A stretch of 64,000 nucleotides of DNA. Origin: an uncultured Candidatus Saccharibacteria bacterium (lineage in GTDB: Bacteria; Patescibacteriota; Minisyncoccia; Phycocordibacterales; CAIRYW01). Positions 61,540 to 63,999 of this stretch are shown in pieces. The position numbers and the translations under genes were made by a program. How positions within the stretch are numbered: the first letter of the stretch is position 1; each line of letters begins with the position of its first letter. Under the pieces are notes generated by a model. The model saw only the letters and a program-made list of their open reading frames with translations, was not told the DNA's origin and ran no database searches. The stretch spans positions 192 to 64,191 of the forward strand of contig CAYUPH010000003.1 in assembly GCA_964446625.1 (NCBI GenBank). The letters run 5' to 3'.

Positions 61540-63999
61540 TTAGGGCTTTACAACAATGTTCACGATTCGGTCTTTGACAACAATGACTTTTATTACCTCT
61601 TTTCCCCCTAAATAACTCTGAACTTTAGGGTCCTGAAGAACGATTTTTTTGACTTCTTCTTCGCCTCTCCCCGATTCAATCTCAACCGTACACTTCATTT
61701 TACCATTAATTTGAATAGGAATCATTAAGCTCGCGTCCATTGTGTACTCTTCTTTGTATTTTGGGTATTTACTTTCGAAAATAGAACCCTTTTCCCCCAA
61801 GCTTTGCCAGATTTCCTCTGCAATATGTGGAGCAAATGGAGAAAGAATTTTAGTAAACATAACGAGACTCTCTCTTGTAATTTGTTTTGCTTCGTAAACA
61901 GTATTTACAAAAATCATCATGGCAGAAATAGCAGTGTTAAAAGAAATACTTTCAGTATCTTCCTGAACTTTTTTGATTGTCTTATGGAGCGCGTTTCTTA
62001 CTTCTTTTGGTTCAGTTTCGGAAATGATACTAAGGAGTCCGTGTACTCTTTCAATAAATCGTCTCGCACCGACAATTCCCTGATCGTTCCACGCAACTTG
62101 AGCTCCATGTGGACCTAGAAACATCATGTACACACGAACAGTATCCGCTCCAAAGCGTGCAACAAGTTCATCGGGGTTTACTACGTTTCCCCTACTCTTG
62201 CTCATTTTCTCTCCATCGGGGCCAAGTATGATTCCATGAGGAACTCGTTTTTTGTAAGGCTCTTTTACAGCGACAAGTTTTCGGTCGTACAAAAAGAGAT
62301 TCCAAAAACGAGAGTACAGAAGATGAAGCGTAGTATGTTCCATTCCACCAAAATACATATCAACAGGACTCCAATATTTTTGATTTTTGAGTGAAGAAAA
62401 TTTCTTCTTGTTTTTTGCGTCCATGTACCTGAGCCAATACCAAGAGCTTCCTGCCCACTGTGGCATTGTATTTGTTTCCCTTCGCGCTTTTCCAGGTAGA
62501 AAAAGTTTATGGATGTCTTTTGCAGTGTTTAGAATCTGATTTTCTGGAAGTGCTTCGAGTAGTTTTTCTTTTCCAAGGTATCCCCATGAGCAACCGATAA
62601 TCTTTGTCCTATCCATAAAGTTTTCAAGTTCAAAGACATCACAGTTTGCATCTGTAAAGTAGTACATTTCTGAGACAGGAACCTTCCATATCTTTTCTAG
62701 TTTCTCTAGTTTTTCTTCTTTTGAAAATGAATCCTCAAAAGTTAAAACTTTATCGATTTTTAGTTTAGACTTCTTTAGCATTGGACCAGAATACCTGATT
62801 GATCCAGAAGAGATTACAGCAATGCGTGCATTTTTTATTTTTTTTACTTCTTCAACAAACTTTTCAAATAGCTTGTGTCCACTTTTTGCAACACTCTCGC
62901 CGTAAACAAGAGACTCTTTATGCAATTTGAGTAACTCTTCTTTTGTTAAATCTCCCCCACGAACATGTCTTGGTTTTCGGGTAAAGTAATTCAAGACACC
63001 CTGCTTTGAATCTTCTAAGTCTTTTGACCAACCACATTCGACGCGCGCCTTAAGTCCAGCGGTATATGTATCCCCAATAACCCCATCGTAGTCAAAAACA
63101 AGATACTTTGTTTTCTTTTCGTTTTCTTTGCATTTCGGACACTCAGTTTTTACCCAGCTTTCAATTGCTGCAAGTGGGGACTCGCCAGTTCCTGTGGGTT
63201 CGTATTTTTTTACTTCGGGAAGTTTTACCGGAAGATCCTTTTCGGGTACGGGAACAACTCCGCACTTTTCACAGTGAATAAGTGGAATGGGCTCTCCCCA
63301 GTATCGCTGTCTCGAAAACACCCAGTCGCGGAGTTTGTATTTAGTAACAATTTTACCCCCCACGAATTCTGTAATTTCTTTTTTTGCAACATCAGATTGA
63401 TGACCAGAAAAAGCTCTCGAGTTTTTAAGTTCGCCATACCCTGTAAATGGTTTTTCCTCGCCTAAGTATCTATCAATAAGTGTTTGAACTTCTGCACCTT
63501 TGTAGAAATTTCTCATTTCATCTTTTGGAATCCAAACAATATCATGCTTGTCTGATTCTTCTTGGGAAAGTTCATTTCTAGTTTCATCAATAAGTCGAAA
63601 TACAAGACCTGTAACATCTGCGACTCTATTTACGTCTTTGTGAGTTGCAAAATATTCTGCACACACTTCATCACCTAAAGTTTGTATAAACTCTAGATTT
63701 GTATAACCAGTCTCTTCCGCAACCTCACGTCTTGCACCCTCTACAACATCCTCTCCATCTTCAACACCACCAATGACGAGTGTTTGCCAATTATATTTTT
63801 TCCATTTAATACCAATAATTTTATCTCCTTGGGGATTTTCAATGAGAGCATGAATAGTTTTTCGTCGTATTGTTTGCTTTCCTATTTGTGGTGGATTAGT
63901 CCAATCTGTAAAATGAGGGACGATAACCTCTCGTATCGGCAAGTTATATTTCTTTGCAAATTCAAAATCTCTTTCATCGTGGGCAGGAACAGCCATCAC
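61540..63999 (-). CDS. leuS: leucyl-tRNA synthetase (partial; N-terminus beyond the window end) with NUDIX and HAD domain insertions
   Basis: End of CP1 ([16 protein letters not shown]), [19 protein letters not shown], CEKCG…CPKC, [17 protein letters not shown], KMSKS, anticodon-binding and C-terminal domains, all in one frame. Two inserts carry [23 protein letters not shown] and [12 protein letters not shown]…VISSGS…FTDANCD. Confidence 0.85.
   Translation of the reverse strand: [819 protein letters not shown]

Follow-up and report, generated by a model that had tools for sequence, protein, structure and literature searches.

Nudix and HAD hydrolase domains nested in frame within a leucyl-tRNA synthetase of Patescibacteria

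Bacterial aminoacyl-tRNA synthetases (aaRSs) are regarded as architecturally conservative, and extra catalytic domains are rare in them; nested catalytic domains are, to our knowledge, essentially limited to editing domains. Among the closest described systems is NadM-Nudix, in which a nucleotidyltransferase with the HIGH motif is joined to a Nudix ADP-ribose/NAD pyrophosphatase. The Nudix, Ham1/ITPase and HAD families constitute the classical nucleotide house-cleaning repertoire, and house-cleaning enzymes are normally free-standing proteins; we know of no description of such enzymes nested in aaRS loops. The protein considered here is a leucyl-tRNA synthetase (LeuRS) encoded by the leuS gene at the end of a 64,000-nucleotide (nt) stretch of DNA (the window) from an uncultured Candidatus Saccharibacteria bacterium of the Patescibacteriota (GenBank assembly GCA_964446625.1, contig CAYUPH010000003.1, positions 192 to 64,191). 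Two complete foreign catalytic domains, a Nudix hydrolase and a HAD-superfamily phosphatase, are nested in frame in this LeuRS. A preliminary description, made from the letters of the window, had already proposed two such insertions, and the proposal is borne out by a Pfam NUDIX match, by AlphaFold2 models and Foldseek searches for both domains, and by conservation of their catalytic residues.

Fusions of HIGH nucleotidyltransferases with Nudix domains are mentioned in the literature (PMC7824862). NadM-Nudix and the window LeuRS are alike in combining, in one polypeptide, an adenylate-forming domain of the HIGH superfamily with a Nudix domain able to act on a nucleotide product. However, the NadM-Nudix fusion is terminal and belongs to NAD metabolism, where its product-substrate logic is clear, whereas the Nudix domain of the window is nested inside an aaRS editing domain. 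The isoleucyl-tRNA synthetase (IleRS) carrying a GNAT domain (NCBIfam NF040702) likewise joins a class Ia aaRS to a non-translational enzyme domain. The added enzyme there is an acetyltransferase, and the window protein scores 35-83 bits on NF040702 through the shared class I core.

The window contains the C-terminal 819 codons and the stop codon of leuS (61540-63999, minus strand) as an open reading frame (ORF) that runs off the window end and corresponds to residues 348-1166 of a 1166-residue LeuRS; the 5' 1041 nt, encoding the N-terminal 347 residues, lie beyond that end. The full gene was reached through the exact protein of the next downstream gene (60436-61467), which was found on four independent contigs from ENA, Logan and the Joint Genome Institute (JGI). 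Complete leuS lies on a 113.5-kb ENA contig (L001; ERZ17987696 NODE_44) at 6428-9928 and encodes 1166 amino acids, with 0 mismatches to the window ORF over 2460 nt, and the gene is identical in a Logan assembly of a different run (L002). The LeuRS frame is therefore real and not a product of assembly. The full-length protein (L001 6428-9925) scored 974.4 bits on the NCBIfam equivalog TIGR00396 (leuS_bact; cut-off 548.4), and the window fragment by itself scored 485.6 bits, lower because it is truncated.

With bacterial LeuRS (TIGR00396; Thermus thermophilus (Tth) 1H3N/2BYT), the window LeuRS shares the HMGH motif, ZN1, CP1 with TTRADT and AHD, ZN2 with two CxxC pairs, KMSKS, and the anticodon-binding and C-terminal domains. 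It differs in possessing a 157-residue Nudix and a 212-residue HAD domain and in lacking the leucine-specific domain. The insertion points were mapped by phmmer alignment of the window ORF to Tth LeuRS (1H3N), which gave four collinear pieces: ORF residues 1-26, 184-290, 503-594 and 598-818 correspond to Tth residues 337-362, 376-487, 489-580 and 637-877, respectively. No counterpart of the leucine-specific domain of Thermus (Tth 581-636) was found in this alignment. The first piece (63922-63999, minus strand, as are all parts of the gene; Pfam tRNA-synt_1_2, ORF residues 1-32) is the part of the CP1 editing domain that holds AVPAHDERD with the universally conserved editing Asp. The second (63130-63450) comprises the end of CP1, the linker YKLRDW, an 11-residue catalytic-core strand and the ZN2 zinc knuckles, with the Cys pairs CEKC at 63262-63273 and CPKC at 63130-63141. 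The remainder (61543-62493; Pfam tRNA-synt_1, Anticodon_1) comprises the second half of the Rossmann fold (RETNT...), KMSKS (62194-62208), and the anticodon-binding and C-terminal domains. In full-length numbering, HMGH is at residue 48 (outside the window and read in L001), TTRADT at residue 251 and AHD at residues 353-355. A search of the ORF against a set of 5.8 billion proteins gave insert-bearing LeuRSs among the top 120 clusters. HIGH (H..GH), KMSK and the editing AHD are each kept in all 106 insert-bearing homologues, and TTRxDT is kept in 99 of the 106. The gene is thus probably the working leuS of a Patescibacteria bacterium (Paceibacteria/Taylorbacteria-like), and its protein probably still charges tRNA-Leu, in agreement with the earlier expectation of an active enzyme.

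The Nudix insert (ORF residues 27-183; 63451-63921, minus strand) lies in the CP1 loop, termed slot B here, where 157 residues stand in place of 13 residues of Tth LeuRS (363-375) within the CP1 editing domain. Insert-free homologues have about 145 fewer residues at this slot. The insert matches Pfam NUDIX (PF00293) with 52.4 bits and an E-value of 7e-14 (gathering score 21.1). Its 23-residue Nudix box (63703-63771, minus strand) fits GX5EX7REUXEEXGU apart from the final U, which is Tyr; Tyr or Phe occupies this position in 86 of 92 homologues. Box residues are nearly invariant among the same 92 homologues (G1 92, E7 90, R15 90, E16 92, E19 91, E20 92 and G22 92). An aromatic residue stands 17 residues past the box, Tyr in this protein and Phe in the consensus. 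An AlphaFold model built with 26 homologous inserts showed the alpha/beta/alpha Nudix fold with a mean predicted local distance difference test score (pLDDT) of 94.8. A Foldseek search of this model against the PDB returned 566 matches at E <= 1e-3, and all 50 of the matches listed are Nudix enzymes. The top match is a protein of Enterococcus faecalis (2azw; template modelling (TM) scores 0.75/0.83), and the Aquifex diadenosine tetraphosphate (Ap4A) hydrolase 3i7u was superimposed with a root-mean-square deviation of 2.5 A (TM 0.68/0.82). The junctions read VI/VPHF...EEK/PFTG, the slashes marking the insert borders.

Median identity to the window protein across homologues is 32% for the Nudix insert and 46% for the HAD insert, compared with 50-70% for the core segments. 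Third-position G+C content was found to be 0.185 in the Nudix insert, 0.297 in the HAD insert and 0.33-0.35 in the LeuRS core segments. Despite its low third-position G+C content, the Nudix insert is not a recent arrival, because it is 73-79% identical in the closest relatives. Only 8 matches were returned by a profile of the window-type Nudix in the 5.8-billion-protein set; we attribute this low number to the word prefilter and do not read it as showing how abundant the domain is.

The HAD insert (ORF residues 291-502; 62494-63129, minus strand) occupies the ZN2 tip, termed slot C, where its 212 residues fall between Tth Cys487 and Gly489, directly past the second CxxC of ZN2. The block coordinates proposed earlier (63436-63921 and 62491-63129) were right to within a few codons. 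Both blocks had been placed on loops flanking the catalytic core, but the first is instead inside the CP1 editing domain. The HAD insert is below threshold in Pfam (HAD_2, 20.6 against a gathering score of 23.8 bits; Hydrolase, 15.4 against 26.4), but orthologous inserts pass (e.g., 53.9 bits in P0012 and 100 bits in P0121), and the miss is taken as a limit of sensitivity rather than an exclusion from the superfamily. The AlphaFold model (pLDDT 93.3) has a Rossmannoid core whose strands 1 and 2, and with them motifs I and II, are separated by a helical module (helices 23-97); this module was therefore assigned as a C1 cap. In Foldseek, the model matched solved HAD phosphatases in the PDB with a probability of 1.00 (best E-value 7.5e-8; 167 matches at E <= 1e-3). 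Its neighbours are phosphoglycolate-phosphatase-like HADs, the pyrophosphatase BT2127 and SerB, with TM scores of 0.6-0.7; the BT2127 structures rank 9th and below (TM 0.57-0.65, 16% identity), no better than the phosphoglycolate-phosphatase-like HADs.

All four HAD motifs are present in the insert, that is, motifs I, II and IV as listed in the preliminary description and motif III in addition. On the minus strand, motif I (10 residues, 63067-63096) provides the nucleophile Asp and the Asp+2 (D303/D305 in ORF numbering), motif II (8 residues, 62800-62823) S397, motif III (SFSKEEK, 62710-62730) K427, and motif IV (9 residues, 62638-62664) D450 and D454. Each of these residues is kept in 46 of 46 homologues, as are the Gly and Val that follow the motif I Asp residues. 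The junctions read CPKC/KENE...FLP/GKAR, and the signatures of the clade are FDFDGVxGDT, SSGSxxY, SKEEK, YYFTDxxxDxYEL and GCxWG.

The possibility that the arrangement is an artefact, such as a mis-assembly, a chimera of three genes merged by frameshift, or a gene whose inserts are inteins or mobile elements removed later, has a negligible likelihood. It was raised only by the unusual length of the ORF and its truncation at the window edge, and nothing was found in its favour. ENA, Logan and JGI assemblies of separate samples all contain the identical sequence, and more than 100 homologous uninterrupted ORFs share the junctions. Mis-assembly and frameshift were rejected on these grounds, the independent assemblies showing no stops or frameshifts that would divide the blocks among different genes. 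An intein or mobile element was rejected because there is no Hint/intein Pfam match and the junctions (for the HAD insert also drawn as CPKC/KEN... and ...LPGK/ARRE) are without a Cys/Ser start and a His-Asn end. In profile searches, neither block was assigned to native LeuRS subdomains.

The metal-binding Glu of the Nudix insert (90-92 of 92 homologues) and the Asp of the HAD insert (46 of 46) are conserved, and the catalytic residues of both domains are under purifying selection. Since the inserts evolve faster than the core while their catalytic residues stay fixed, they are better understood as active enzymes than as spacers, and it is likely that each hydrolase is catalytically active. 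The conservation of Nudix, HAD and LeuRS motifs among homologues makes a LeuRS with two extra predicted active sites probable; one polypeptide would then probably hold four active sites (synthetic, editing, Nudix and HAD).

The same conservation bears on the idea that the inserts are regulatory or sensor domains, which would bind a nucleotide signal (Ap4A, (p)ppGpp or ADP-ribose) and thereby influence LeuRS while turning over little or none of the ligand. Their location in mobile parts of LeuRS (CP1 and ZN2) makes a conformational effect conceivable. However, all the catalytic residues are kept, beyond those needed for binding, and near-identical LeuRS cores work without the inserts, so that a sensor function is very unlikely.

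Nested-hydrolase LeuRSs are not unique to the window but common in the public data on Patescibacteria. Insert-bearing members of the top 120 clusters belong to Taylorbacteria, Paceibacteria, Parcubacteria and unclassified Patescibacteria, and more than 100 Patescibacteria LeuRS clusters contain Nudix, HAD, Ham1/ITPase or alpha/beta-hydrolase domains in many combinations. From the spacing between LeuRS anchor motifs and from Pfam scans, at least five insertion slots were recognized: past residue ~205, past residue ~241, in the CP1 loop (slot B), near residues 543 and 593, and at the ZN2 tip (slot C). An insert-bearing LeuRS carries one to five nested hydrolase domains. The Nudix copies among them number from one up to three, as in P0015, where all three are of the window type (37-47% identity). 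The upstream slots contain alpha/beta-hydrolase domains and extra Nudix copies, the alpha/beta-hydrolase being of the Ser-hydrolase type in P0066 and P0084. Ham1p_like/ITPase domains were found in P0181 and P0190 alongside Nudix and HAD. The slot that holds Nudix in the window LeuRS is occupied in relatives by Ham1p_like or by HAD, the latter in P0116.

Insert content varies even between close relatives. The core of P0003-P0007 and P0049 is 75-79% identical to that of the window protein, and the Nudix insert of P0003-P0007 is 73-79% identical to that of the window, but these proteins are without exactly full-length residues 639-849, the HAD insert, and read CPKC[G/K/R]-[G/A]KAKRETNT at the junction. 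Conversely, P0008, with 80% core identity, has the HAD and lacks the Nudix insert. Since near-identical cores occur with and without each insert, the LeuRS loops are permissive and the modules accessory. A neighbour-joining tree built on 757 core columns shows a scattered distribution of states and requires at least 8 changes of the Nudix state in slot B, 19 of the HAD state in slot C and 18 in the upstream slots, these counts being rough lower bounds.

Such a distribution is also what would be seen if the domains were merely hitch-hiking, that is, if they were housekeeping hydrolases unconnected to LeuRS. Their host would be an essential gene of a streamlined genome, expressed constitutively and with loops that tolerate insertions; it would act as a "safe harbour" in which they are co-expressed and need no promoter of their own. 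The scattered presence and absence on the core tree, the differences between sister sequences and the filling of one slot by different domain families are all consistent with this explanation.

When a profile built from 24 HAD inserts was run against 1.84 billion representatives, 325 proteins were retrieved at E <= 1e-10. Outside LeuRS, members of the clade include stand-alone proteins of about 205 residues and a two-domain HAD-Nudix protein (P0140). The clade also occurs within valyl-tRNA synthetase (ValRS; P0125 and P0144) and, together with Ham1, in another class I aaRS (P0130). P0121 (1092 residues; "small GTP-binding protein" in JGI) is an EngA/Der ribosome-assembly GTPase interrupted by HAD segments; of its three HAD_2 stretches in Pfam, two match the profile of the LeuRS-insert clade. 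A scan of GTDB species genomes yielded 79 HAD-clade loci, nearly all in metagenome-assembled genomes (MAGs) of the Patescibacteria type, and 44 of the 79 lie inside LeuRS, the host type being assigned by ORF length and bit score. The clade is therefore largely confined to Patescibacteria; several MAG titles ("uncultured Gammaproteobacteria", "Saccharibacteria", "Udaeobacter") seem to be automatic labels of low reliability. At locus L063 (701-6783), ValRS-like segments were observed on both sides of the HAD match, and the HAD-containing ORF has only 274 residues under table 11; this arrangement may stem from a frameshift, from a gene that is split or from the use of an alternative genetic code.

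Stand-alone HAD genes of this clade often neighbour genes of translation. In four genomes (L048, L053, L054 and L057), leuS is preceded at a distance of 70-190 nt by such a gene in the same orientation; the leuS gene there has the Nudix and lacks the HAD, and is followed by a sigma70_r4/HARE-HTH gene as in the window. Elsewhere, the stand-alone HAD gene follows the gene for glycyl-tRNA synthetase (GlyRS; L059) or a class II aaRS gene (L055), stands between an aaRS gene of the Asp/Asn type and the gene for a class II aaRS that bears a Nudix domain at its N-terminus (L069), or precedes TypA/BipA (L077-L080). The class II aaRS at L069 (4677-7046) consists of tRNA-synt_2b and HGTP_anticodon preceded by the NUDIX domain, and that at L055 (1739-3985) is of the D/K/N type with a C-terminal B3_4 domain. 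Stand-alone genes for the window-type Nudix, of about 160 residues, exist as well. At L084, a stand-alone alpha/beta-hydrolase gene (131-877) is directly followed by a stand-alone window-type NUDIX gene (943-1446) whose product is 45% identical to the insert; these are the two families that are nested together in LeuRS P0066 and P0084.

In the window, the gene directly adjoining leuS downstream (60436-61467, minus strand) encodes a Sigma70_r4/HARE-HTH protein of 343 residues, and this leuS-HTH synteny is conserved in distantly related Patescibacteria (L053 7756-8604, L054 7652-8599 and L057 7629-8615). The further flanks of leuS contain two YceG-family paralogues (58153-59136 and 59140-60408, both minus strand) and a DUF8128 membrane protein (L001 3867-4688).

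Two of these observations fit hitch-hiking, namely that EngA is among the hosts besides aaRSs and that some stand-alone copies have unrelated neighbours (e.g., L084 and L085). However, hosts and neighbours lean strongly towards aaRSs, with 44 of the 79 GTDB loci in LeuRS and others in ValRS or beside GlyRS, Asp/Asn-RS and class II aaRS genes, and a stand-alone HAD gene stands directly upstream of leuS in four genomes. Hitch-hiking alone is thus considered rather unlikely.

What would the two domains do in LeuRS? The Nudix module would cleave the pyrophosphate bond of a nucleoside-diphosphate-X compound, the best guess at its substrate being dinucleoside polyphosphates such as Ap4A, or non-canonical nucleoside triphosphates (NTPs). 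The HAD module would strip phosphate from a small product, a nucleoside monophosphate (NMP) or pyrophosphate (PPi). The type of HAD cap is tied to substrate size, C1 caps going with small substrates, and its C1 cap would limit the HAD module to a small molecule, to the exclusion of RNA and protein. Both modules belong to a set of small hydrolases (Nudix, HAD, Ham1/ITPase and alpha/beta-hydrolase) that is shared across the lineage and whose members have repeatedly been inserted into, fused with or placed beside aaRSs and translational GTPases. Their role would be the in situ disposal or recycling of nucleotide by-products, or the sanitizing of nucleotide pools, by enzymes tethered to or co-expressed with the translation machinery.

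The reading of the inserts as two autonomous small-molecule hydrolase domains in permissive LeuRS loops, likely serving nucleotide by-product disposal, recycling or pool sanitation, is favoured with moderate confidence. aaRSs produce PPi and adenosine monophosphate (AMP), with Ap4A as a side product, and the families that share the slots are those of the house-cleaning set; it is because of these two facts that a by-product or sanitation role is preferred. House-cleaning NTP pyrophosphatases comprise MutT-type Nudix and Ham1/RdgB ITPase enzymes, and Ham1p_like domains are found in the same LeuRS slots (P0181, P0190 and, in the other class I aaRS, P0130), which gives the house-cleaning idea indirect support. 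The new proofreading route that had also been proposed gains no specific support. Fusion together with gene neighbourhood is classical evidence of a functional link. A real functional coupling to aaRS chemistry is possible on this basis, although we hold it only tentatively, at somewhat less than even likelihood. A stricter version, in which the hydrolases would be mechanistically coupled to aminoacylation, with the Nudix splitting Ap4A/ApnN or adenylate-derived species, the HAD removing PPi or dephosphorylating AMP, and a mobile pool of such modules shared among LeuRS, ValRS, class II aaRSs and ribosome-associated GTPases, is unlikely.

Several observations weigh against the by-product and sanitation role or its coupling to LeuRS. 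The variation of insert content among close relatives makes the modules dispensable for LeuRS itself. Translation genes are dense in small genomes, so that some adjacency is expected by chance, and the four cases of a HAD gene beside leuS share synteny and may go back to one event in evolution. The HAD clade further occurs in EngA and beside TypA; neither of these proteins makes PPi or Ap4A, and this weakens an aminoacylation-specific mechanism. No second, insert-free LeuRS was found in the 64-kb window, to which that search was limited. As for the substrates, no substrate-specific motif could be assigned in either insert by sequence and profile comparison, the best structural match of the Nudix insert (2azw) is uncharacterized, and the HAD profile reaches only E ~0.4 against PDB sequences.

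The comparison with characterized enzymes gives a hint for the Nudix insert, the nearest of them including Ap4A hydrolases (3i7u, Chlamydia CT771 and lupin 1f3y) and decapping enzymes. With these (AvrM14 among them) and with 2AZW, the insert shares the fold and the Nudix box, at profile E-values of 2e-10 to 5e-8. However, identity is 17-20%, Nudix enzymes of the ADP-ribose, NTP and MutT types score almost equally, and the window clade has, unlike the Ap4A and decapping enzymes, its own HKDxNR motif past the box. With C1-capped HADs (2HI0/2HSZ, BT2127 3QUQ and SerB), the second insert shares the Rossmannoid core, the helical cap and all four motifs, but identity is 12-19%, the profile link (to beta-PGM) is the E ~0.4 match noted above, and the insert clade is distinct. 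In NCBIfam, only weak sub-threshold matches to many Nudix equivalogs and HAD-IA subfamilies were obtained, and the database names of the stand-alone HAD members are uninformative on substrate. As judged from these comparisons, neither insert can be placed in a characterized subfamily, and any specific substrate, whether of the Ap4A type for the Nudix or NMP or PPi for the HAD, is doubtful at best.

The hosts of these domains, being nucleotide-binding translation enzymes, are also typical targets of toxins. The hydrolases might accordingly confer immunity in cis, destroying at the target nucleotide-analogue inhibitors of aaRSs or GTPases, such as agrocin 84, microcin C and albomycin-type aminoacyl-adenylate mimics, and the rapid turnover and combinatorial nature of the inserts may be seen as resembling conflict systems. 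However, no toxin or immunity gene context was seen, and Nudix or HAD chemistry is not obviously suited to acyl-sulfamoyl or phosphoramidate mimics. Neither insert matched the defence models of PADLOC, and an anti-phage defence module was rejected on the same result. Immunity in cis is thus even less probable than a sensor function.

In the window as a whole, five aaRS genes were found within 64 kb, encoding CysRS (6732-8102), a Glu/GlnRS-type enzyme (17949-19307), an Asp/Asn-type class II enzyme (24341-25690), AlaRS (54050-55900) and the LeuRS (61540-63999). Pfam detected no inserted hydrolase in the other four. The AlaRS (minus strand) has only 616 residues, with tRNA-synt_2c and the SAD motif at its very C-terminus, the usual C-terminal domains being missing. 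A restriction-modification-like pair is also present, formed by an 884-residue ResIII/DEAD helicase with a C-terminal RE_endonuc domain (28770-31424, minus strand) and a 613-residue N6_N4 DNA methylase (32099-33940, minus strand). An ORF of 417 residues (51534-52787) has only a weak match to Baseplate_J.

Although proteins of this kind are common in public Patescibacteria data, searches of the full-text literature, paywalled papers not being covered, found no account of bacterial aaRSs with nested Nudix, HAD, Ham1 or alpha/beta-hydrolase domains. Insert-bearing LeuRSs are real, widespread and apparently unstudied; the host is a genuine bacterial LeuRS, and the inserts are genuine members of the Nudix and HAD superfamilies. 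They are at present named inconsistently in databases. JGI automatic annotation calls some of them "leucyl-tRNA synthetase/FMN phosphatase YigB", and other automatic names are "class I tRNA ligase family protein", "alpha/beta fold hydrolase", "HAD superfamily hydrolase" and "hypothetical protein".

Overall, an essential synthetase tolerates one to five nested hydrolases at defined loops across a major uncultured lineage. For protein engineering, this provides a natural map of permissive LeuRS insertion sites, past residues 205 and 241, in the CP1 loop and at the ZN2 tip. Patescibacteria are nucleotide auxotrophs with tiny genomes, and the arrangement suggests that in these bacteria nucleotide clean-up or the removal of by-products is linked, physically or genetically, to the translation enzymes. 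If the hydrolases are mechanistically coupled to aminoacylation, this would represent a previously unrecognized, lineage-wide layer of translation-linked nucleotide metabolism.

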